A DNA stretch of 63,340 bases, filler included. It is 18 parts of 18 records of this genome, joined end to end, with 100 filler letters (N's around TTAATTAATTAA, not from the genome) between each part and the next. Parts side by side here need not be neighbours in the genome. Positions count along the whole stretch, not along the records: positions 56,540 to 59,932 come from SRR7504441_65283; 17 more parts are not named here. One strand, 5' to 3'. The notes under the pieces are model-generated. The model was not told the origin of the DNA. It ran no database searches and saw only the letters and a program-made list of their open reading frames with translations. Both the position numbers and the translations under genes were made by a program. Shown piece after piece: positions 1 through 60,032 of the stretch (its first letter is position 1; every line of letters begins with the position of its first letter).

Positions 1-3000
1 ATAGTCTCCAGAACCCAAGTGGTACGTCGTTGTAGCGGTGCCAGGTTCACACGAACCAACGAGATGCACACCCAAGCTTTCTTTAACTGGGATTCCACTC
101 TCCCGGACTACACTGCTGTTGGTGGGCAGATAGGCATGCGCTTCTGTGTTTGGTGGAACGGAGACATTGTACTGACAGGCCCGCCCATGCACCGACCAAG
201 AGCTTCGGATCGGGCCAAAGCCAGCGTCGAAGCTTGCTGACGCTGAGCTTACTCCACCGACACCGAATGGTGGCCTGAGCGCAAACAATGCAAACCCAGC
301 ATGGCCAGCAGGACGTCGTATGCCACCGATGCCCGAGACGAACCACTGCCCTATCCCATTCAGGGTGCCGTGCATGACTGAGAGAGAGCCGCTAGTCCAT
401 TTGTTGCACTTGTATGGCTGCTGTGGGTTGGAGTCGCCATCGCCGCACCTGCCATACAGAACCGGTTCAGTACAGTCAAGCTTTCCAAGGCAGCAGAGCG
501 CGTGACCTGCCCCACTCCTCGGGCCATGTGCTGTATCCTTTGGAGAGCAAGTCGCTGTAGCCGGGCGCCGTCTCGACAGTGGCCAGCTGGTGTACTAGGG
601 TGTCATGGCCGCCACCATTCGGGAGCGAAGTGTCGTACAGGAGTTTGGTCATGAAATAGAGCCCCTGCAAGCCTGTGTCGATGTGCCCTGCCTGGCGGCC
701 ACTGATCTCGTCGGACAGTGCTGCCCAGACGCGCTCTTGGTACTCGAATGGCACTGCACCGGATATCAAGGGCATCGCCAGATGCGTCTGGCGAGAGTCC
801 AGGTAAGTGGCGGTGCTTTGGTTGAACCACTTGCTATGGATTGCTGCTGCCAGTGCCTCAGCAGCACGATGGTGCGCAGATGCCTTGGACTCAAAGCCCA
901 GCACGTTGGACACATTGGAGACGATTCGTGTGCAGTACAGGATGTAGCAGTTGTTGAACAGCTCTGCCTCTGGGCTGCTCAAACCCCCTTGTGGAGGCTG
1001 CTCAGAGCCATGAGGGCTGACCTGTCACCACTTGGGTTCAGCCGCCAGAAAGCTTGTCGGCACTACATGCTTACCCAGTCGCCCAGGAATGTCCAAGGGT
1101 CGATTACTTTACCGTTCTGGACGCCCCAATCATGGACCAGCCCGTCTGTGGCGCTAAGGCTGCGGCCCCAGAAAGAGAGTAGAGACTCCATGGCACTGAA
1201 TGAGCTTTGTAACATTTGCACATCGCCGTATGTGAGGTAGACTTGCCTGGCACACCGGCTCAGTCAGCCCTGGCGGTGTGGCGAGGCGGGGGGCGATGGC
1301 ACGACCCACCAGGGCATAGTGATCAGGAAGCCACTCCATGCAGGCCCACCACCTCCGTCGATGGTTGGCGCTGTGTGAGGCACATAGCCCGTGCTGTTGA
1401 GCCCCGCTGTGTGCGCCGGATACGACTGCACGTCTTGGATGTCTTGCAGCCACTTCGTATAGAACTGTCCAGACTCGAGGTTCTGCAGTGCAGTCTCGAG
1501 GCTGGTATGCGCGTCTCCGAGGTAGCCTAGGCGCTCCCTATGAGGGCAATCCACACTCATCCCACCAGTCACGAGATTCGCGAGCGTCCAAATCGAGGTG
1601 CGATACACTTGGTTGAGCAGCTGATCAGAGCTCTCAAAGGTGCTGATAGTTGCCCTACCGCTCTGCTGGCCTGCTGCGGCGATGTTGCCTACACGGTAGC
1701 CCATCAGCTGTTGGAGTGCCGGAGCCTCCAAGAGCCCTTCAATCACGAGATAGTGGACTTCATGGTACGAAAACCTCGGCAGAAAGGTCCAGTTGCCGCC
1801 CGATGCAGCGGACGTCACCACCCGATGCTCCATGTTGTACTCAGGGGCGTTGCTGCAGAAAGGCCGGCCCTGCTTCGATGCTTGCCTCGCCTCCAGTGTG
1901 CCGCACACGGGCACTGAGCTTGCTTTGATTGCCACTGTCGCCCCGCCGCTGCTCTTCATGCCGCTCAGAGACACCCAACCGGCAAACGGGCGCTCAAACT
2001 CAACCAAATACTTTTGCGCGAAGGGCAGCAGCTGGCGTACCGCCTTGGCTGCAATCCTCTCTCGCAGCTGGTTGGGCTCGGAGCAATCGTGGCTGAGGGA
2101 TCGCCCAGCTGGAGTGTGCACCGGTACTGCTTGCTGCCAGCCGTCGCTGTCCTTCAACTGCGGCGAGGCCCACAGAGGCTCCGAGAGGCTGTGATTGACC
2201 TCATCGCCCCCGAAGTCAGAGTTGCGCCACTTGCCGAGATGCCTGGTGTCGGAGCGCTTGGCCTGCCAAGTGCCGTCGCTGACCAGCATCAGGGCTGGTT
2301 GGGGTGCAGCCTCCGAGGTGAAGCTCAGCTGTGCGAGAGTGATCGGCGAGCCAGCTGAGCTATTGAATAGATTGGGCACGGAGGGGTTGACTGAGGTGTA
2401 GTCACTCCAGCCGCGTGCCAGCCAGAGGCCCAGCACATTGGGCTCCCCTGCCCTGAGCAGTGGTGTGATGTCGTAGGTCCTCAGCAGGATCCGCTTGGAG
2501 AGATCGGAGACTGCAGGAGCCAGCACGTCGCTGCTGGCCTTCTTGCCATTTATCCAGAGCTCGTGGTACCCGATGGACCCCACAGTGGCCAGCACGGTGC
2601 TGCCGGCTGAGTGGAGCGTGGATGCTGGCAGCTGGAAGCTTTTGCGAAGCCACGGACAGTCTGCACCATCAGTGCTCGCTGCGCCAATGAAGCGAGCTGA
2701 GGCATCGATTGCAGCACCGACGCTGAACCGGCGGATCGGGCTGGTGGATGTGTTGGTGCTGGTGTTGAAGGTCAGCTCCACCCGCCAGTGGTAGACGGCC
2801 CCTCGAAGGAGCGGATCGGTGCCAGCGAACCGAACGAGCTGCGAGGCGCGGCTCTGGACGATGCCAGAGTCCCACACCGTCGAAGTGGCGGAGAGCGAGG
2901 CAGAGGTGGCCACAACCAGCCTGTAGGAAGCCTGTACACTGGCCCGCGGCAGCCCGACGCGGGGATGCCAGCTGAAACGTGGGCGCGTCGATTGGAGGCC

Positions 3001-3126
3001 CAGCGGGCTGCTTACATACTCGACTTTGGTCTCCACCGTCGACTGGGCCGCACAGCCAAGGATTAGCACGAGGAGCGCCGCACAGTGCGCTGCTCGACAC
3101 CTCATTGCCAGTAGTGATGTATGCAC
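1..3126 (-). CDS. Secreted GH78 alpha-L-rhamnosidase-like glycosidase, 4 exons, 3' end runs off contig
   Basis: Signal peptide (ALLVLILGCAA), PRFSW N-domain, DCPHRERLGYLGD, FLGDW, TWPEEW and terminal LGSGDY. GT-AG introns at 1247-1309, 1022-1074 and 449-506 join ORFs 1264..3126 and 476..982 and a final exon in frame. Confidence 0.9.
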
Positions 3127-3281
3127 AACCTTCTAGCTTAATCGCAGACGCCCAACGCGCAGATCAGCCTGCGCCGCCCCGGTGCCCGTCAGCTCCGGTG
3201 CTCTGCCGTTACTGAACATTCAGTTGACGGTAACGATCTCAGCGCGGCGACTGCGCTGGCCGCTCGGTGGCGCGGGGCGAT

Positions 3282-5451
3282 ATGGCGCGAGTTCGGTCGT
3301 TGTACGACTCCGGGGGAAGGTACAACTCCGCGGGAAGGTTGATGCAGACAGCCGAGGTGGACCCAGACACTGCAGATATCTACCACGCCACTGATTTCGA
3401 CGTTTACTTCGATCCCAACGGATTCGCCTCGCTGGGCTTTACTGATTATAAGCCGGGTGGTCAACCAGGACAGGCCGTGCCCATCACAAACTCAGCGGGC
3501 GAGGAGCTGTACGTGCAGCCATCAGGTCGCTGTGCTCTGGCGAGCGCAGGCACCGCCCCTCAAGAGGACAGCCGCTGGATTTATCGAGGTGGCTTCCTGA
3601 CGCTCCCGAATGGCAGACAGCTGTACGCAACTAGTGATGGGTGGGCCAATGCTGATTCAGAGAGTGACACAGTGGACAAGAGCGAGCGGCAGTGGAGCCT
3701 GGTGGATGGTGTGTTTTCGCTGGCCGACGGAAGGCAGCTATACATGAGTGCTGGCGGGGCCGGACTAGCAATGCCCGGCCAGTACTCAAACACAAGCGAG
3801 ACACGACGAGTATGGCTCGTGGCCCAACTGCAGGTAACACTCCACTGACTGCTGTTTGAACCAGTGCGAGTGACCCACTGACTGCTGTGTGCAGCAAGCG
3901 AGCAAGGCGTTTCTGGCGCTTCCTAATGGCCACCAACTGTATGCCCGGCCCGATGGTCGCTGTGACGTTGTCCAGCCAGGGTCGGAATACATCAACGAAG
4001 AGGACGTCTTGTGGAACTTCGATGCCAAAGGGTTTCTCATGCTGCCCGACGGCAGGCAGCTCTACGCAACTAGTGATGGCTGGGCAAATGCAGCGAAGCC
4101 TGGACAAGAAACCAACAGCAGCGATTCTAATCGAGTGTGGAGACACGTGGATGGAGTCTTTACGCTCGCTGACGGCCGGCAGCTCTATACGAGCGCTGGA
4201 GGAGCCGGACTTGCCCAGCTGGACCAGTATTCGAACTATGCAGCAGCTGCAGACAGGCGTCTCCTCCACTTTGTGGAGCCTGACTTCCGGCGTCCGGCAT
4301 CTCCACTGACAGTGCTGCAAGACATTTCCCGTTGGGAAGTGATAGAAGGCTACTGCTTCGACATGCATTTTCCAGTCAACTCGGGTGCGGTGCATACCGA
4401 GGAGGAGGAAACATTTGTTCGGCACGAATGCATGAAAATGGGCTACGGTGGGTTTCACAAGAAACATGGGTCATACCAGGGTAAGGGCGGGGCAGAGGAT
4501 AGGCCTCCAGTCTGCTTCTATATGCAGAAGACTCAAGCCGAGCTGAAGGCACTCCTCAAACCGTACCCAGGCTACACGGCCTATATTGCGCCACCAGAGC
4601 ACACTCCGGACTCACGCTTTCGTCCATACGCCGCAGCATGTCACTGTAGGTGGCAGATGCCGCAATGCCCCTTCGGTGTGACCAGCTTTGCAGTCACAGT
4701 CCGCGTGGACGCTCCCACCAACTCCACCTACTATATGGCAATCGGCTTCGACGGAGGCTATTCTGGGATGCAGCAAGGCTGGGGAGGCACCCCTGCCTCT
4801 TATGTAGGCCGGCACCAAACACTCTTCTCAGTCTGGGAACCCACACCAGAGCATCCTGTCACCACACCGTATCTCGGGGCAGGCGTCACTGCTAGCGCAT
4901 TTGGTGGAGGTGAGGGCAACGGTGGAGGTGCGTACTCAAACTCAGATGAGAGCTCGCTGGTGGCGTTTGGTCCAGGAGAAGAAGTCACATTTATTCTGCG
5001 GGCAGTGCCTGATCGGTCTGGAGAAGGCACCGTGCTTGCATTGATGCGGCATACAGAGCGTTACGGCTGGGAGCATTTCGCCACCCATGTGGTTTGGGTG
5101 GAAGATCCAAAGTACCGAGGGCGCATCACCGGTCTCCACAGCTTCATCGAGGCGTTTGGTGGTGAGTATGGGTTGACTAGCCGCAGTGGGGTGTGGAAGG
5201 CATGGGGTCAAGAGAATGACGGGACTGATTGGTTCCCCGTGACCCAGGTGAGTGGATCATGCACAATGGATGGGTACGGGGACAAGTCTTATGGGAACAC
5301 TCGGGTGGGTCCTTATGACGGAGGAGTTGAGATGTGCACTGGAGGCCCCAGATTGAACGATGGCCGCGGCTCGGAAATTTACAAGGGCCCAATCGCCCCG
5401 CAGCCGGTGCCTGCTCACGTTCTCTCTGCCCCTGCAAGCATTTTTGAATGA
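3282..5451 (+). CDS. Protein with six ~40-aa repeats (2 x 3, beta-trefoil-like) plus a C-terminal DUF3472-like domain
   Basis: ATG at 3282; GT-AG intron 3834-3894 joins the two ORFs in frame. Repeats follow L(P/A)xGRQLY...W...G(F/V)F. The C-terminus has YYMAIGFDGGYSGMQ, LFSVW, FGGGEGNG and HSFIEAF, resembling DUF3472. Confidence 0.7.
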
Positions 5452-35338: not shown

Positions 35339-35720
35339 CTCCAGAGAGACGCGTCAACCACTGCTTAGACTACCGGTAAGTTGGCAGTTGCGGACTCTGC
35401 TTATCAGTTCACAACCGTAGAAAAGCTGTTGCATCTCATCGCCACTCTCCTCCTCGCCGCCCAGTGCCGGTGAGCCCACCCCTATGTCCACCAGAGTAGC
35501 CCCCGACGCGTGCTGCCAGTCACGCCGGACCGCCCGCTCTGCCCGGCCCCGCCCGCCTCTGGTCTCTCTGCTTGCGCCCTGGTGTATGCGGGCTCGGCTC
35601 GTCCACGCCAAGTTCCTGACNNNNNNNNNNNNNNNNNNNNNNNNNNNNNNNNNNNNNNNNNNNNTTAATTAATTAANNNNNNNNNNNNNNNNNNNNNNNN
35701 NNNNNNNNNNNNNNNNNNNN

Positions 35721-38700
35721 GTTGCATTCCGCAGCTCGTAAGCAGCACTGAAACCTTGTAAACGTACGCCAGAGGCGATGGCCTCCGGTAAAGGATTCAC
35801 CACTCGAATCGACAATTGAGTGTAGTCGGCGGATAGCGAAGCATGGGCGTCCAGGGCCACTGGAGTGCTGAGCGGCCCGCCAGAAGAAGAGTTGAAGGAA
35901 GCATTGTAGGCTGTGCTAACGTTGAGCACCAGCGGTTGATGAGACAGCGCAAGCATCCTGGCCGAGTAGTAAGTGGGCTGACCCCAGACATGGCCCATGT
36001 TGTCAAAAAAGACAGTCCCCTGGTCCCAATCGTTGCAGTGGCGGTCATCAGTCGCTGGGTTGCAATCAGGGGCGTGGTTTTGTTGGTATGCCTGTAGGCA
36101 GTCCGCCTGTCCAACAAAGCGCACCTGGCTGCCTACGGAACTCGGGCCAGGAACTCGCTGAAATGCGAGCACATTCTGCGCATGGCCGAGGGCGCGTGCT
36201 AGATCGTGGATATTCTTGCCTTGCTGCCACCCCGGTTGACCGTTCTCTTCAAAGACGACTGTCCGTATCCCTTGATGCTTGCCAGAGCACCCTGACTCCT
36301 GTTGCCACTGTGCGGTGAATTTGCGCATCGCCTCGAATCCCTCAGCGAAGCTCGCGTGCGGCTTACCTCCGTGATATGGCGCGTTGGGATCCATACCATT
36401 GACATGTTGGTCCCAACGCACGTCCAAACCGGCGCAATATGCGCGCTGCACAAGTTCCTTTTGATCAGCCTGCTGCTCGTCGAAGTTGCCCCAAGGGTGT
36501 AGCGCGAGCACAAAAGGCAGCTTGCCCAGCTTGAGCTCATCTGCTCTCTTCTGTGCAGCCTGCGCAAAGCTAAAGAAAGCCTCGACGCAGTCGCCATTCT
36601 CAGTGCAAAACTCGTTGTGCTGTGACGGTGCTCTTTCGTTCCCAAGCTCGAGAAGAACTCGGCTTAGATTGTATGGTGCGGCTCGACCGTCCTGCCGACG
36701 TAGTGCCCCGTGGGCTGTTGTGATGTCCCCGAACATGTACTCCACAACCGCGACCGGATCGTCCCTCTCGTTGAGGCTAACAGCAGCTGTGAGCTCGGCG
36801 GCATCACAAAAGTCCAAGAAGTCTACCCAGCCCCAGCCTGCACTTGCAAACGGATACTCTATTCCCATCATGGGCTGGCGATGCCATCTTGGCCCTCGGA
36901 AATTGGCTAACACGTACCCTGAACCAGGAGCAGAATCGGCCGGCACCTGGCTGCGAGCATTGATCGTGCCACCGCCCATCCGCATGCCTCTCATGCCTGT
37001 GCTCAGCAGGAACTCTGCTATATCGCGCCTCACAGGCAACCCCTTGAACCGACCCCACTCTCCCGGCTGGAGAAACGCCATATCCAGATCGAGTGTAGAT
37101 CCCGCTGTGCGCAGCGCGATTACAAAGGATCCGTTCCCAATGCACTGCTTGGAGGGCGTGAGACTCAGGTTGAACATGCCCCATTGAGGCCCCTTCTGAG
37201 GGACCAGCAAACTCTGCTCAGCAAGCACCTCTCTCCCGCAGTGCATCCTCACACTCACTGTACAGTCACGGCCCAAAGCCCTGGCCCAGAGCCACCCTTC
37301 CAGCTCTCCGCCAGCCACCAGAGTCATCCCAGCCATGCCCAGGCCTCGATTCTCAGCCAAGACTTCCTCCCCAGAACTCAGAGCCAGCCGCAAGTACTGC
37401 ACCCCATTGAGCCTCTCACTCGCATTACTACTCCGCAGCGTGACATTAGCACTCGTGTAATCCCCACCTACGCGCCACTGGGAGGAGATGCCCGTGCTGT
37501 TGTTGTAGTCTTCCTCAAATGACTCGCCCACCAGCATCTGGGAGTACAGTCCGCCGTAGATCTCATGCTCAAGGTACTCTATCCCACAGCCTGCGCCGTT
37601 CATCTCCTCTGGCAGCGTTGCCACCACATTTGCTGTGACCGTGATCAGGTTACCAGACCCATTCACCGCCAACCTGGGCACTTCCTGACGACCAAAGTGC
37701 ACTTTGGAAGCAGCCGTCACCTTAAGCAACACGGCATCGTGCGGACCAAGCCTAGCAGTTATAGCTGTGGCGTTGCTCATCACAGCCTGATCGTGCTGCC
37801 AGAGGTCTGACACGTGCAGCTTGCCAACCCCCTGCAGACGCAGGCTCGAAAGAGACACACTCACCGCCGCCGGCACATCAGCCAGATTAAAGAGCGCTAC
37901 AAATCGAGCGTCGTCATTGGCCGCGTCCTGCGCTGCCCATACCACGGACTCGTTTGTTGTTGAGTGAATTACTTGATTGTGGCAACTCTCTCGCTGAACT
38001 GCGAGCACATCCTGGTTTGAGAGCAGGGACAGCGTGCTAAGATTTGACTTGATTGGGTCGCCCCCCCAGATGAGAGGCGCCCGTGCCATGACCCACAGGC
38101 TCACCATCGAGCGCTGCTCTGCTTGAGTGAGTAAAGAAAATCGTGGTTTGCCTCCAGTGTGTGCGAGCCAGCCCATGGGCAGCATGTCTAGATCGGGCGA
38201 GAACAGCCGGGTCGAGTACTCTGCTAGCTCGGCCTCATAGTCAAAGTGGCCTCTCAGCTCTGTCCAGACATCCCAGAAGTCTCCCGTTAGCCTAGCCATC
38301 ATTGGCTGATGGAGCGCCTCCGCCATTTTCTGCGCGGCGATCGCCAGCGTGACATTCGGAGTAGATGATCCTGGCGAGAGTGAAATCAGCATCGGTCGGC
38401 CTCTGTGCTGAATGGCCTTGACCAGCGCAGTGATGTAGGCCTCGCCCCGGAACCAGTCTGGCCCAAACACGCAGTCAATCTTCAGCATGTCCAGCTGCCA
38501 CTCATCGGCATACAGATCAGCCAGCGAGTCAATGTACGGCTGGGCGCCGGGGTGGCTCATGTTGATCCCGTGGACCAGCCAAGGGTTCCACGGGCAATCC
38601 ATCGCCCCGGTCGCCTTGCCGTCCTTATTCACTGGGCCGCCCAGCACTGCAATGTCAGCTGCAGTGTACCTGGTGCCCTTTACCGGCACCCTGGCCTCCA

Positions 38701-39121
38701 CCGCCATTCGCGGCACGCCGCCCATGATCCAGGCGCCCATCTTCAGTCCCAGCTGGTGGACTCTGTCCGCCACTGGCCGGAGCCCGCGTCCCCCGGCACT
38801 GCTTGGGAACTGAGTAGTGTTGGGCACCAGCCGGCCGTACTGGTCTACTGTCTGCGCACCGTAAAGGTTATCCTCGCCGAACCAGCCGCTGTCCAGCGTG
38901 AAGGTTTCGAAACCTTCCAGCCTGTTGCTCAGGGCATCGGCGTCCTGCGCGGCCCGCTGCTCGGTGATTGACTCCCTGCTCTGCGTCCACGGCGGCGAGC
39001 TGTCGTACGAATTCCAGCCTCGTGGTGGCACCCGGAGCTCCGAGTCGGCACAGCGCTGCCCGATCCCCGGGCTGGCCAGGCTCGCTGTGCAGCACAGCAC
39101 GAGCAGATGGATCCGCATCAA
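35721..39121 (-). CDS. Secreted GH27 + GH51 fusion glycosidase, 3'-partial, no intron needed
   Basis: GH27: PPRGWNSY, LDSGW, DQYGRLVP..FPS, MLKIDC, LSPG, RLTGDFWD, PDLDMLPMG. GH51: EIYGGLYSQM..ESFE, RMGGG, LELGNE, VVFEEN. Confidence 0.88.
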
Positions 39122-39467
39122 TGTCGGAACATAAAGTCGTTAGCTCTTGATGGATGTGGGTGGACGTTTGGATCTCGGAAGTGCAAGCACTGGTGGACGG
39201 CGGGGGCCTCGCCGGGCGCCTCTGAGGGGTGCACGGCTGGGCGGGCGGNNNNNNNNNNNNNNNNNNNNNNNNNNNNNNNNNNNNNNNNNNNNTTAATTAA
39301 TTAANNNNNNNNNNNNNNNNNNNNNNNNNNNNNNNNNNNNNNNNNNNNCGATACCACGGATCGATTTCGACTCACACAACTCGGGCCAGCCCAGAGCTTT
39401 CAGCGCCGCATAGAGCGCAGGGAAGGCATGCCCGGCGGCAAGTTGCTCAGGATAACGGAACTACGGC

Positions 39468-56326: not shown

Positions 56327-56756
56327 ATTAGTGTCTGGCCGGTCTGGGGTGCTGGGCTGGCGGCGCTGGTCTGTGCCCCGTCGATCCGCGCATGTGGCCA
56401 CCCGCACTGCCACCAGGCCGCGGCATGCTGCCTGCTGCCNNNNNNNNNNNNNNNNNNNNNNNNNNNNNNNNNNNNNNNNNNNNTTAATTAATTAANNNNN
56501 NNNNNNNNNNNNNNNNNNNNNNNNNNNNNNNNNNNNNNNCATATTGATATGACTCTAGCCACCATGGCGCTGTCTAAGTGCCACGGAGAGTACCGACCCT
56601 CCATGTCCATACCATGTCCATCCAGCAGGCAGCTCCTTTCGATCTCGAGCGAAGCGCGCGCAAATATCATGACCGTGTTTGTGGCTGTGAGAAGCCCTCT
56701 TGCCACCGTCCGAGGCCGGTCGAGCAAAAAGAGAATCCACCAGCTCAGGCGGGCCA

Positions 56757-59749
56757 ATGCCGGCCTTGGACTTCATCACCCCGACCGCCAACGCGCGGTC
56801 GGGTGGTGTGTCAAACGGCTCGCATCCCGGTCCGGCGCCGGATGCCTCGACCCCGCTGGTCAAAAGCCCGCAGGAGCCTTGGTTCGACCGGCCCGTCGCG
56901 GTGGCCCGGCCTGAGCACTGGACGGAGGCCCAGATCCTGGCCGCGATCGAGGCGCAGCTGCGGAAGGACGAGACGGCGGACAAGCTGCACGAGGTTGGGT
57001 GGGAGGACCGGGACTTGGCCGAGGAACTCGGGGTGAGCTCGATGGTGGGCCTGCGACTGATCAAGGGGCTCCAAAATCAGCTGGGCTTCTTCCTGCCCAA
57101 GGGGCTGCTCTTCGAGCACCCCACCGCCCGACTGATGGCCGAGCATCTGTTTGAGCTACAAGACACAGCCAAGCCGATACCGCCCGACATGCTGGACGCC
57201 GAGGATAAGCAAGAGGACGACGAGCTCCGGCCGTTGATCGCCCAACAGGCCGGCCCGCCGGCTTGGAAGCCTTCCGACCCGCCGCCCGGGTCGGAGGCGC
57301 AGCTGGTGGAGACCGGCGGGATCTCATCTGGGGTGGTCTGGCTCTGCCTGCTTGTTGGGCTGATCTGGTGTATGGTGGCGCCGTGGTACCTGATGCTGTG
57401 GGTGATCATCAACAAGATTTACCCGTCGCATGAGATGACCGACTCGGCCCACTGGCGGCTTATTACTATATTCGCGGTGATCCCGGTTGGCATCTTCGGG
57501 GTTCATCTGATGGGGCTCTTGGTTGCGGTGCTGTTCAAGTGGCTGGTGCTCGGCCGACTGCATCAAGGCACCCCCCGCCCCGGCCCAGCTCTGACACGGC
57601 GCAGGCGAATCCTTCCGGGACTCCACGATGCTCCACCACCGCTGGTGGGTGACGGACAGACTGCTCCGGCTGTCTTCTGGCTCCTACCTTATCAACTGGG
57701 CAAACACTTGGTGCACTAATAGTCATACTGCCGGCTGTGAGCGGCGGCGGCAGGGTTTGCCCGATGTGGATGCGAATGCTCGGAGCACAAGTCGGGTCCG
57801 GGTGCCGCTTCGAGAGCCGCTGCACCTTCCTGGACATGGACTTGATCACAATTGAGGACAACACGCAGATCGCAACAGGTGTTACGCTCAGCACTCACTG
57901 GTTTGATTTCAACAAGTCCGGTCCTGGGATGTGGTGCATCTTCGAGCCAGTGGTGGTGGGCAAGAACTGCGTGATCAACTGCAACTCTCACCTGGTTGGA
58001 CCACTCGAAGTGCCTGACAACACGCATTCAATCGCGCAGGCGTGCAACAAAACAATTATCACTGAGTCAACTCTTGTTGCGCCGGAGCCCAGTCCGAGCT
58101 GGTGTCAGGTGATCACACTCAACATCGTTGACACGACCGGGGTGTACTTTCTGTGGTGTGTTGTGGCGGGTATTTGCTTCCCGGTCTTCCTGTTTGCCAG
58201 TTGGATGATGAAGGAGAATGACGTGATGCCCGCTCCGTGGATGAATGCTCTCACTCCAGAGTTGAAAGAAATGTCCCAGAACTTGGCACTAATAGTCATT
58301 CTGTTCCAGTCCCCGATGTTCATCGGGCCTCTCATCCTGATTTTCACGGATGCAGCTGCACTCATCTTTGTCTCACCTACCCAGCTGCTCGAACCTGCTG
58401 AGTTCCTTCTCAAGTGGTATGAACAGACTTGGTGGTTTGAAAAGAGGCTGGTGGGAGTCATCTACATCTTTTGCATCATGGGTGTGATGCTGTGGGCACT
58501 GCAAACGGTTGTAGTGGTCATGCTCAAGTGGGCCATCATCCCCGAGCGGAAGATCGGCGTGGTCTCCGCCACAAGCTTTTACGGAGTGCGTCGACGTTTC
58601 CTAAAGCCGCTTCTTATGTTGGCCATGTCCGCGCAGCCAACTCAAGCTGGGTACTGGATTGTGATCAATCTGCTTGGCGGCAAGGCCGGAAGAATGCTCA
58701 GTATGATCAAGCATTTCACCATTGGTCAATCGGATATGTGGCTGCTTAACATAGGCAACCGTGCGCACAATGTCGGCACTCTCGCCGTGGCTCGACCACT
58801 GTCGTACAACAAGGAAATGCTCGGCCCAATCAAGCTAGGCAATGACTGCATTGCCGGCGGGATGAGCGTGATCGGGCCCTTCACCGAGCTCAAGGACAGA
58901 GCAAATACAGGATTCATCACCGGCCTCGAGTATTCAGGAACCGAATCGCGTCCACTGGTGCTCCCAGAGGGTGCTAGCTATCAAGGCCGGCCCGGCTTCT
59001 GGGTGAACAGGAATCACGATACAATGCCAGACGAGACTGTTGGTCTGCAGGCTGTCTACTTCATTACTCTGCCTTGGACAATCATGGGTCAAGCGCTCAT
59101 CTCGTTGATTGCAATCTTCCCAGCACTGTATGTCAGCACATATGCCGCTGTCAATATGAGCAACGCGGCTGCCGTCGGACTCGTGCCATTTTTGGCCCTG
59201 TTTACGATGGCTTGCTTCAACGCGATTGGGCTGCTGATCAATCACTCAGTGCAGCAGAGGTCTGGTGAAAAGCTTATGTGGAATTACTCAACATTGCTCC
59301 AAAATCCAATTACCATGTTTTCTTTCGATGTGGTGGAAATTCCCATTACCGTAGCTTACTTCCAGGGCTCACACTTTCATTTGTTTTATTTGAGGCTACG
59401 TGGGATGAGGGTAGGCCGCGGAGTGCAGCTTTGGTGTGCCCAGGCCTTGGAGCCCGAGTTGTGTGAGGTCGGGGATAACAGTGTCATGCAAGAAATGAGT
59501 CTGCTCCATCCGCAGATCTTCATGGTAGGCAAGATCAACATCGCACGTGTCAAAATCGGCGAGGAGTGCAACATTGGACAATCTTCTTTTGCCATTCACG
59601 GGGCAGACATCAAGAACGGGATTCATACAGAAATGTTTGAGGTGGTGGCAAAGGAAGTTCACCAGAGAAAAGACGCCTCTGACCAAGCAACAGCGGGCGT
59701 GCTGGGCCGGCCGTTGAAAGGTAAGGACCTCAATGGACAACCTGCATAG
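56757..59749 (+). CDS. Carrier (T/ACP) domain + Pls/PosA-type NRPS terminal module (TM segments and three left-handed beta-helix-like domains), 2 introns
   Basis: ELGVSSMVGLRL..LFEHPTARLMAEHL carrier domain. KWLVLGR..HRWW..MRMLGAQVG, KWAII..LLGGKAG and YLRLRGMRVGRG are each followed by hexapeptide-like repeats. Introns at 57568-57604 (GC-AG) and 57711-57753 (GT-AG). Confidence 0.82.
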
Positions 59750-60032
59750 ACATTCGTATAACCTGCCGAGCATTTAGGCTAGGTTCCATAATAAAAGCTA
59801 AATTAAAGCCACATGAAGCCACACGCATTATCGGCACAATCCGCTGAGCCGTTCATCCAGGAACGGCACACGCGCTTCTTCGAGGTCCGCCGACAGCCGT
59901 TTGCTGCAGGGAAAGTGACGGCCAGTCGCCCANNNNNNNNNNNNNNNNNNNNNNNNNNNNNNNNNNNNNNNNNNNNTTAATTAATTAANNNNNNNNNNNN
60001 NNNNNNNNNNNNNNNNNNNNNNNNNNNNNNNN

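Follow-up and report, generated by a model that had tools for sequence, protein, structure and literature searches.

A putative ACP-dependent membrane enzyme with a Pls/PosA-type terminal module in an uncultured marine protist

The window, namely the whole stretch of DNA analysed (63,340 nucleotides, linkers included), consists of 18 pieces of 3.0–5.5 kb divided by 17 copies of the linker N44-TTAATTAATTAA-N44, and the ORFs on the adjoining pieces are not genomic neighbours of the Pls-like gene described here. The contig that bears this gene contains the following features.

56540–59932 (+): whole gene-bearing contig, 3393 nt, with artificial linkers on both sides (56440–56539 and 59933–60032)
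56757–57567 (+): exon 1, with the disordered N-terminus (residues 1–52), the carrier and the TM1–TM2 hairpin, ending with the family motif KWLVLGR; placed from the ORF and its translation, the in-frame TGA at 56688, a GC3 of 0.5 upstream versus 0.85 from the ATG, and the AF2 model
56916–57167 (+): carrier domain, a PKS-type ACP (residues 54–137), with Ser95 at codon 57039–57041 in the motif LGVSSM
57294–57551 (+): TM1 (residues 180–221) and TM2 (residues 231–265), AF2 helices at pLDDT 86–89, matching hydropathy segments 183–219 and 233–269
57568–57604 (+): predicted intron 1, 37 nt, GC..AG; by manual reading, no other boundary pair was seen to restore the frame while preserving VLGR
57605–57710 (+): exon 2, a frame-1 ORF with the family R-W-W motif between TM2 and C1, matching profile positions 347–367
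57711–57753 (+): predicted intron 2, 43 nt, GT..AG; the equivalent point is the called ORF start in P0003
57754–59749 (+): exon 3, encoding C1, C2 and C3 with one membrane segment between each and the next, then a disordered tail; stop TAG at 59747–59749
57755–58054 (+): C1 left-handed beta-helix, AF2 pLDDT 79–96, with His354 (exon-3 residue 48, codon 57896–57898) in the motif L-S-T-H-W-F-D
58136–58537 (+): membrane region between C1 and C2, with three hydrophobic segments by hydropathy, not two, and low-confidence AF2 helices
58556–58999 (+): C2 left-handed beta-helix (AF2), with His644 (exon-3 residue 338) where the family has Phe
59030–59248 (+): TM5–TM6 helical hairpin, AF2 helices at residues 426–467 and 470–498 of exon 3, pLDDT 79–90
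59264–59662 (+): C3 left-handed beta-helix, in which the family motif Q-T-H-L-F-E-D-R is changed to H-P-Q-I-F-M-V-G (His891, Gln893)
59790–59795 (+): possible polyadenylation signal AATAAA, 41 nt past the stop; RNA-library contigs reach 59771–59792, positions that are not RNA ends as such

The spliced model joins the three exons (56757–57567, 57605–57710 and 57754–59749) into a CDS of 2913 nt, encoding 970 residues with no internal stop, and the two short introns are both necessary and sufficient for the open frame. The initial annotation named the ATG at 56757, the in-frame TGA at 56688–56690, an LGVSS motif with its second Ser at codon 57039–57041 and the stop TAG at 59747–59749, all of which read as claimed. 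Its two short introns also hold, since their removal opens the frame and leaves the profile match continuous; their placement between the carrier and the membrane helices does not, as both lie between TM2 and C1. The spliced protein forms a single-domain match to the profile of 60 family members (219 bits; profile positions 163–943, residues 50–939), with only 1 and 3 inserted residues at the two exon junctions, and the exons scored singly give 35, 6 and 157 bits (157.5 bits for exon 3). Both introns are predicted from the sequence and are very short, with a rare GC donor in one of them. Thirteen contigs from four marine RNA libraries, two of them poly(A)-selected, align at 57974–59792 with 95–99+% identity; these contigs, from 4 of 23 runs, cover this interval only and span no exon joint, and 56540–57973 lies outside their cover. 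The host is an uncultured marine protist, and the gene is nuclear, intron-containing and real.

GC3 is 0.45–0.55 upstream of the ATG at 56757 versus 0.85 at this ATG, and the in-frame TGA lies 69 nt upstream. In frame 0, the codons of 56691–56756 score −3.8 bits, and the score turns positive from about 56736; coding-type codon usage sets in at about 56736–56751. The start at 56757 is favoured by the stop codon, the ATG and this onset of coding-type codon usage, and we give slightly better than even odds that it is the true start of the gene, upstream exons being possible. A 5′-to-3′ gradient of GC3 was also considered for locating the true 5′ end and was rejected, the other ORFs of the window behaving inconsistently in this respect. 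In the 217 nt between the ATG and the contig end, no Pfam family is found in any frame. An AMP-binding domain is found neither in the gene nor in these upstream frames, in agreement with the initial annotation, and no FAAL or PKS domain lies in cis on the contig. The gene lies alone on its 3393-nt contig, and the apparent absence of an A domain holds for this contig only. In the other 17 contigs, a Pfam scan of 124 ORFs of at least 130 residues at E ≤ 1e-5 detects none of the PKS, AMP-binding and PPTase families. With ATG 56757 as the start, the protein itself would lack a loading domain, and a separate enzyme would charge it in trans.

In the AF2 model, residues 1–52 are disordered (Pro/Ala/Ser-rich) and lead into a four-helix carrier, in which helix II comprises residues 95–109 with Ser95 at its start; this ACP-type carrier sits directly before TM1. 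The phosphopantetheine-carrier likeness noted initially is borne out by the Pfam PP-binding match (29.2 bits, gathering score 20.8). The top six and most of the 27 listed PDB sequence matches are PKS carrier domains (best 6h0j, 1.1e-5), and the first 14 rows of the Foldseek search with the carrier model are PKS-pathway ACPs. As a control, the T domain of P0005, one bacterial family member, matches NRPS PCPs (PvdL and the gramicidin and tyrocidine synthetases). The carrier belongs with the type I PKS-style ACPs and not with the NRPS PCPs. Ser95 is the only invariant column among the aligned sequences (32/32), and phosphopantetheinylation is predicted at this residue. The unusual Ser-Ser carrier motif also occurs in P0112 (YGLSSI) and P0105 (LGLSSM).

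The membrane module, modelled by AF2 with 63 rows, contains three beta-helix domains parted by helical membrane segments (pLDDT 76, pTM 0.77). AF2, hydropathy and the profile alignment agree with the T-TM-C1-C2-C3 layout and the homology to the Pls/PosA terminal domain recognised in the initial annotation, with a four-helix carrier, two long TM helices, three beta-helix domains and, additionally, a third hydrophobic segment between C1 and C2. The C1–C2 spacer is about 70 residues longer than in P0005, as judged by eye against this one bacterial member, and P0003 has the same three segments. The best solved fold matches are maltose/galactoside O-acetyltransferases (Foldseek, TM 0.55–0.61), no solved Pls-type structure appears among the PDB matches, and Pfam Hexapep matches at 31.2 bits (gathering score 27). 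The modelling shows an architecture of a cytosolic PKS-type carrier, a TM hairpin and three hexapeptide-acyltransferase-like beta-helices, with membrane helices before each. The expected similarity of exon 3 to TIGR02353 is significant (79.8 bits, E 1.4e-22, three stretches) but falls far under the curated cut-off of 423.1, marking the membrane module as very divergent, and just 33 of the 102 strongly conserved columns of the family are retained. By sequence comparison, the window protein is not a TIGR02353 member under that cut-off, yet it is a true homologue of the Pls/PosA terminal domain.

The putative active-site motif of the family is altered in the window protein. The His of the C3 motif, present in 58/60 family rows, is the putative catalytic residue in the family; the window protein has its His two positions earlier and lacks Glu-Asp-Arg, and the corresponding motif of P0003 is H-P-G-I-F-M-Y-G. 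Since the canonical C3 His and Glu-Asp-Arg are not kept in place, catalysis by this module is putative. Meanwhile, the C1 motif L-S-T-H-W-F-D, judged by eye from the repeat consensus, appears to resemble the family's C3 catalytic-type motif, and a His at the position of His354 is found in 8/60 family rows. In C2, the column of His644 is Phe in 52 of the 60 rows and His in the window protein, P0003 and P0098. The altered C3 motif, together with the His residues in C1 and C2, suggests an active-site layout unlike that of canonical Pls.

Among 1.84 billion representatives, the closest sequence is P0003 (2.6e-45, 26% identity over all of exon 3), the sole match below 1e-30. In the trees, the window protein and P0003 form a subclade with P0141, P0112/P0159, P0098 and P0117, apart from the A-PCP members; support is 99 (FastTree, 135 rows), 98 (LG+G4, 42 rows), 96 (LG+C20 PMSF) and 95 (without P0003), and all of these placements involve long branches, the end branch of the window protein being 1.9–2.8. 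The eukaryotic homologues anticipated in the initial annotation are represented by a protein of Cryptomeria japonica within this subclade (support 95–99). The complete members of the subclade, one of them from Cryptomeria, carry FAAL-ACP or FAAL-ACP-KS-AT-KR modules, and P0098 begins within an ACP. In the wider clade of 16 rows, a cis adenylating domain is found in all six relatives with an examined N-terminus (P0141, P0159, P0161, P0074, P0092 and P0075), the calls for P0075 and P0161 coming from phmmer similarity or the source's name and the others from a Pfam scan. Furthermore, A-domain similarity is present in 100 of 158 proteins, and the rest often start inside A/T domains or lie on contigs of less than 5 kb; most of the A-less hits listed look truncated or split.

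Closer relatives were sought in several collections. A word-indexed protein search with exon 3 gave no match among 7999 scored candidates of near lengths, and at longer lengths only four distant bacterial Pls/PosA proteins, with no near-identical full-length or transcript-derived protein. A metagenome contig scan with an alignment of the window protein, P0003 and P0098 as query gave 336 relatives; the best 80 of the 336 are all 18–36% identical across their best segments, with no close relative among them, so no longer contig of the same organism was found. A viral contig scan gave 98 pattern matches, of which none was confirmed. The ESM Atlas offers possible leads in clusters that resemble PP-binding and Hexapep, one of which has 142 members mostly labelled diatoms.

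Pls from Streptomyces albulus and PosA from Acinetobacter baumannii have the same carrier followed by membrane helices that alternate with three left-handed beta-helix domains of about 180 residues, and likewise possess no conventional C or TE domain. They differ in having an A domain, of which there is none on the contig of this gene, and a PCP-type T domain (from the one control, P0005) instead of a PKS-type ACP. Identity is about 17–24%, and Q-T-H-L-F-E-D-R is changed in the window protein, which is moreover eukaryotic, has introns, a longer C1–C2 spacer (by about 70 residues against P0005, by eye) and a third hydrophobic segment. The carrier-TM-C1-C2-C3 layout of Pls/PosA, and a PosA model with the same pseudo-trimer on six helices, are described in PMC10522769, where the structure and catalytic residues of the Pls-type terminal module are given as unsolved.

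Other relatives share parts of this arrangement. P0141, a metagenome protein of 2855 residues on a 27-kb JGI contig, carries FAAL-ACP-KS-AT-KR followed by the Pls-like terminal module; it belongs to the same terminal-module subclade and has an ACP-like carrier before the membrane module, but its loading and extension domains are in cis and its identity to the window protein is about 20%. In Cryptomeria japonica, LOC131036185 (P0112, XP_057823992.2; longer form P0159, GLJ23286.1) carries amine oxidase-FAAL-ACP-ACP and then the Pls-like module. It is eukaryotic, in the same subclade and has one ACP with the Ser-Ser site YGLSSI, but comes from a land plant, with a FAAL and a flavin amine oxidase in cis and two carriers. 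P0003, a predicted protein of 639 residues on a 3106-nt ENA metagenome contig, shares H-P-x-I-F-M, the His in C2 and the long C1–C2 spacer, whereas its ORF begins where intron 2 lies in the window gene. The maltose/galactoside O-acetyltransferases (for example PDB 3hjj, 5u2k and 1ocx) have the left-handed beta-helix fold of each C domain, but are soluble homotrimers that use acetyl-CoA, while the window protein has three different copies in one chain, anchored in the membrane with a tethered carrier. In the literature searched, which covered few subscription journals, no description of ACP- or PKS-linked Pls-like forms was found. The window gene, the FAAL-PKS fusion, the Cryptomeria protein and other marine sequences together indicate a branch in which eukaryotes couple this membrane machine to carriers of the acyl or polyketide type.

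This is a real gene, and its enzyme is most likely an ACP-dependent membrane acyltransferase or polymerase. A chimeric contig, or a decaying pseudogene in which errors and not introns account for the frame changes, has only a very small probability: the splice junctions are predicted from homology, the GC of the contig drops from 0.67 to 0.50 along its length and RNA-library contig X3 carries a 1-nt deletion at 59260, but the declines of GC and GC3 (0.85 to 0.57) are gradual, the profile alignment is unbroken over exons 1–3 and from TM2 into C1, each intron model has an AG acceptor and brings back the exact reading frame, the exon-3 ORF is open over 698 codons, and 22 of the 33 differences listed between the environmental contigs and the gene are synonymous (11/33 are not). 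Likewise, a functional equivalent of Pls/PosA, that is, a cationic poly(amino acid) synthetase with a separately encoded A domain that makes an isopeptide-linked diamino-acid homopolymer, is improbable. The shared T-TM-C1-C2-C3 layout and true homology would fit it, and homologues are reported from fungi and some lower eukaryotes (PMC10522769, PMC7179176); against it stand the TIGR02353 score of 79.8 bits versus 423.1, the 33/102 conserved columns, the changed C3 His/Glu-Asp-Arg motif, the PKS-type ACP in place of a PCP, and the grouping in the trees with FAAL/PKS-linked members. The carrier type and this FAAL/PKS-linked subclade also make a secreted polyamide, one of the outcomes proposed in the initial annotation, less likely.

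The remaining alternative, a gene cut by the contig end, has a substantial probability, somewhat short of an even chance. Exons 5′ of 56540 would then encode a FAAL/A loading or extension module, possibly KS-AT-KR, the ACP-TM-LbH part would be the terminal off-loading module of a large PKS/NRPS-like synthase acting in cis, and the Met at ATG 56757 would be internal, closely preceded by a splice acceptor. Such a structure is suggested by the cis adenylating domains in 6/6 examined N-termini of the wider 16-row clade, by the FAAL-ACP-KS-AT-KR that P0141 has ahead of the same module, by the disordered stretch of 52 residues that precedes the ACP and looks like an interdomain linker, and by the CAG acceptor-like sites at 56741–56743 and 56746–56748, just 5′ of the ATG; in addition, only 217 nt of contig lie 5′ of the ATG. 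A weak coding-like signal also occurs in another frame at 56564–56686, with a Kozak-perfect ATG at 56564 and a codon score of +6.6 bits, its sliding scores being mixed and the opposite strand scoring +9.2. However, this would place an in-frame Met by coincidence within three codons of the putative acceptor and would require an intron of more than about 200 nt, as against the known introns of 37 and 43 nt, and by eye no canonical in-phase donor/acceptor pair joins 56564–56686 to frame 0, save a 28-nt GT..GAG intron. Furthermore, no domain is detectable in the upstream frames, and none of the 124 ORFs (at least 130 residues) on the other 17 contigs is PKS or AMP-binding at E ≤ 1e-5.

The preferred reading is a protist membrane enzyme with a PKS-type ACP and a Pls/PosA-type module that uses an acyl donor, starts at 56757 and is loaded in trans, and we assign it a probability of roughly 45%. 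The carrier would be charged in trans by a separate acyl-AMP ligase, acyltransferase or PKS. As in the family, the three beta-helices may pack as a pseudo-trimer atop the membrane bundle, and the phosphopantetheine arm would bring the thioester-bound acyl group to this pseudo-trimer. The module might then join the acyl group to an incoming nucleophile via an amide or ester, in a single step or repeatedly, on the membrane or across it. The donor is more likely to be a fatty, polyketide or modified acyl group than a free diamino acid, given the ACP-like carrier and the grouping with FAAL-ACP and FAAL-ACP-KS-AT-KR proteins; because the subclade is tied to FAAL/PKS loading and not to amino-acid A domains, an acyl or polyketide substrate is also likelier than a Pls-like polyamide.

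To our knowledge, no enzymes other than the Pls-type terminal modules polymerise amino acids bound to a carrier at the membrane with neither a ribosome nor a classical condensation domain. A more far-reaching reading, which we consider unlikely, is a stand-alone membrane polymerase or acyltransferase with its own trans-charged PKS-type ACP, whose rearranged active site assembles or exports a non-peptide product, and which represents an unstudied eukaryote-rich lineage of marine protists and land plants. If this were true, possible products would include oligo-esters or oligo-amides built from hydroxy- or amino-acyl units, and acylated surface lipids. If the coupling of this module to acyl or polyketide carriers is confirmed, it would broaden the chemistry expected from the Pls-type module, and would point to unknown lipids or polymers from abundant marine protists and plants.

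To judge from sequence comparison, the gene at 56757–59749 (plus strand) encodes a genuine variant, eukaryotic and highly diverged, of the terminal module of Pls and PosA, the bacterial epsilon-poly-L-lysine and delta-poly-L-ornithine synthetases, fused to a PKS-type ACP. The predicted gene model is as follows:

56757–57567, plus strand, exon 1
57568–57604, plus strand, intron 1 (37 nt, GC..AG)
57605–57710, plus strand, exon 2
57711–57753, plus strand, intron 2 (43 nt, GT..AG)
57754–59749, plus strand, exon 3

After splicing, the CDS comprises 2913 nt and specifies 970 aa, with no internal stop. Against a profile of 60 family members, the spliced protein aligns as one unbroken domain (profile 163–943, residues 50–939, 219 bits), with just 1 and 3 inserted residues at the exon junctions; exons 1, 2, and 3 scored singly give 35, 6, and 157 bits. 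Both introns are predicted from this homology and from their boundary sequences, the RNA contigs covering 57974–59792, i.e., neither intron. The sequence details of the initial annotation, which had described a carrier-bearing gene with two short introns, were all borne out on re-reading the sequence and its translation.

At 57974–59792, the gene is matched at 95–99+% identity by contigs of four RNA libraries from the sea, of which two were poly(A)-selected, and 22 of the 33 listed differences from the gene are synonymous, an excess. One poly(A) contig, from the run X3, spans 59154–59792 and carries a 1-nt deletion at 59260 and a 3′-UTR that differs after 59781; it probably represents a related strain or, given its depth of 12, an error. 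Along 56757–59749, GC3 declines steadily from 0.85 (first 150 codons) to 0.57 (last), and overall GC goes from 0.67 to 0.50.

The 63,340-base window is no single chromosome stretch; it is made of 18 pieces (3.0–5.5 kb each, GC 0.51–0.66) separated by 17 artificial 100-base linkers (44 N, TTAATTAATTAA, 44 N; e.g., 56440–56539 and 59933–60032). Hence, the genes flanking the Pls-like gene are not its genomic neighbours, and gene-neighbourhood arguments across any linker are invalid. The piece 56540–59932 (3393 nt) carries this gene alone, with 217 nt upstream of the proposed ATG. Because the other pieces hold typical genes of eukaryotes (Pfam: ankyrin, RCC1, RING, UBFD1, and protein kinases, among others), and because an arginase-family ORF has oomycetes, a cryptophyte, and diatoms as its best named relatives (52–55% identity; 63–68% to unnamed marine sequences), the source organism is taken as an uncultured marine protist that may be a stramenopile. 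On the minus strand at 1–3132, GH78 alpha-L-rhamnosidase domains lie over three ORFs in different frames (1–594, 479–1024, and 1267–3132), which suggests an intron-split gene; this family is best known from bacteria and fungi. A DUF3472 ORF (3874–5448) adjoins this region. Elsewhere, a 1140-codon unbroken ORF (35720–39139, minus strand) bears Melibiase_2 and Melibiase_C (alpha-galactosidase) within its first 475 residues, and its last ~650 residues match no Pfam family.

The Pls paper is reportedly that of Yamanaka and colleagues (2008). The initial annotation proposed an HMM check of the carrier and of TIGR02353, the NCBIfam terminal-domain model; the carrier held, with Pfam PP-binding at 29.2 bits (gathering score 20.8), and the TIGR02353 match, at 79.8 bits (E 1.4e-22), fell far under the 423.1 cut-off. 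Pfam Hexapep matches at 31.2 bits (gathering score 27). Searched in full with HMMER, 1.84 billion representatives yield 281 matches at E ≤ 0.001 and just one below 1e-30, namely P0003 (639 aa, on a 3106-nt ENA contig), which is 26% identical and whose start coincides exactly with the start of exon 3. The remaining matches are ~21–36% identical, the majority being bacterial A-T-TM-C proteins. Among 102 columns that 75% or more of the 60 family members share, the Pls-like protein retains 33. The family C3 motif Q-T-H-L-F-E-D-R (His in 58/60 rows) becomes H-P-Q-I-F-M-V-G, and H-P-G-I-F-M-Y-G in P0003. C1 carries a His at the corresponding site, as do 8 of the 60 family rows, and in C2 a His replaces the Phe present in 52 rows; with this altered histidine pattern, the active-site layout may differ from that of Pls.

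By sequence and fold comparison, the carrier is a PKS-type ACP. Type I modular PKS ACPs make up the top six and most of the 27 listed matches among PDB sequences (best 6h0j, 1.1e-5), sharing with the carrier the motif L-G-x-[DS]-S-[LM] ... L-x-F-[DE]-H-P-T, and PKS-pathway ACPs fill the first 14 rows of a fold search. The control, a T domain from the bacterial member P0005, matches NRPS PCPs (e.g., PvdL and the gramicidin and tyrocidine synthetases). The Ser-Ser carrier site also occurs in the relatives P0112 and P0105. In the AlphaFold2 model of exon 1, a disordered stretch (residues 1–52) precedes a four-helix carrier, which is followed by a linker helix and a pair of long TM helices; helix II of the carrier begins at Ser95, the sole invariant column in a 32-sequence alignment.

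Trees were built from the terminal module alone (570 profile columns) after removal of six near-duplicate rows, and P0003 and P0098, excluded at first by a coverage filter, were put in. The Pls-like protein falls in a six-row group with P0003 and the following relatives:

P0141: FAAL-ACP-KS-AT-KR-...
P0112/P0159: Cryptomeria japonica, amine oxidase-FAAL-ACP-ACP-...
P0117: Perilla frutescens fragment
P0098: begins inside an ACP

Support for the group is 99 (FastTree, 135 rows), 98 (IQ-TREE LG+G4, 42 rows), 96 (LG+C20 PMSF), and 95 (P0003 omitted); since all branches of the groups are long, the placement is a supported lead, no proof. The wider 16-row group is eukaryote-rich: 8 of 16 rows bear, or cluster with a protein bearing, a eukaryote's name (Cryptomeria, Perilla, Phalansterium, Obelidium, Goniomonas, Pyxidicula, and two rows of Rhizoclosmatium). 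Pls-like terminal modules are encoded in land plants, and the one of Cryptomeria is joined to an amine oxidase, a FAAL, and two ACPs; the source annotation calls the Cryptomeria proteins uncharacterised or hypothetical, and the fragment from Perilla is labelled an HXXXD-type acyl-transferase family protein. The P0105 cluster (P0164–P0167; ENA/Logan contigs of 7–24 kb) comprises proteins of 1125–1171 aa with a carrier-like LGLSSM site, a Pls-like terminal module, and no detectable A domain. By eye, with no support from Pfam, their first ~130 residues are reminiscent of the last part of a flavin amine oxidase, a domain that P0159 carries at its head.

With a probability of about 0.55–0.6, slightly better than even, the gene stands alone from ATG 56757. 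The ORF contains no Met before this ATG, and an in-frame TGA lies 69 nt upstream; GC3 rises at the ATG from 0.45–0.55 to 0.85, and the frame-0 codon-usage score is −3.8 bits over 56691–56756, turning positive from ~56736–56751. Pfam gives no match in any frame of the 217 nt before the ATG, and an intron reaching past the contig end would exceed 200 nt, beside introns of 37 and 43 nt. Alternatively, exons beyond the contig would supply a cis adenylating domain and ATG 56757 would not be the true start. Such a domain occurs in all six wider-clade relatives with examined N-termini (two by phmmer similarity or source name), the majority of A-less database entries look truncated, the disordered stretch ahead of the ACP resembles a linker, and CAG sites immediately precede the ATG. 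Furthermore, a Kozak-perfect ATG at 56564 (gccaccATGg) lies in a frame that meets no stop between the contig edge and 56914 and whose score is weakly coding-like (+6.6 bits, 41 codons). A donor-like GTGAGA occurs at 56687, and a minus-strand ORF (56488–56772) scores +9.2 bits. The signals in 56540–56756 could reflect a uORF, one more exon at the 5′ end, or a divergent gene starting here.

In exon 3 (AlphaFold2, pLDDT 76, pTM 0.77), three left-handed beta-helix domains are predicted with helical membrane regions between them, in keeping with the carrier, TM, and three beta-helix layout first proposed from sequence. The best solved-structure matches are maltose and galactoside O-acetyltransferases (TM 0.55–0.61), with no Pls-type terminal domain among the PDB sequence or structure matches. 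The layout agrees with the published PosA model as given in PMC10522769 (section 13), a pseudo-trimer of three beta-helices on six membrane helices. The same paper reports that fungi, Amoebozoa, Metazoa, and Alveolata have homologues and treats them all as A-T-terminal-domain enzymes, and PMC13291983 refers to a hybrid cluster in which an A-PCP protein bears a Pls/PosA-like domain. Within the literature searched, which took in few of the subscription journals, Pls-type modules linked to an ACP or PKS were not found described.

The carrier would present a thioester to the pseudo-trimer seated in the membrane, which may form an amide or ester bond, and the donor is more likely acyl or polyketide-like than a diamino acid. 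In a stand-alone protein of this kind, the carrier would be loaded in trans. The C1–C2 membrane spacer (58136–58537) is ~70 residues longer than in P0005, the one bacterial member compared by eye, and contains a third, proline-containing hydrophobic segment (~exon-3 residues 177–206; low-confidence prediction) common to P0003. If this segment spans the membrane, the topology would differ from that expected for Pls.
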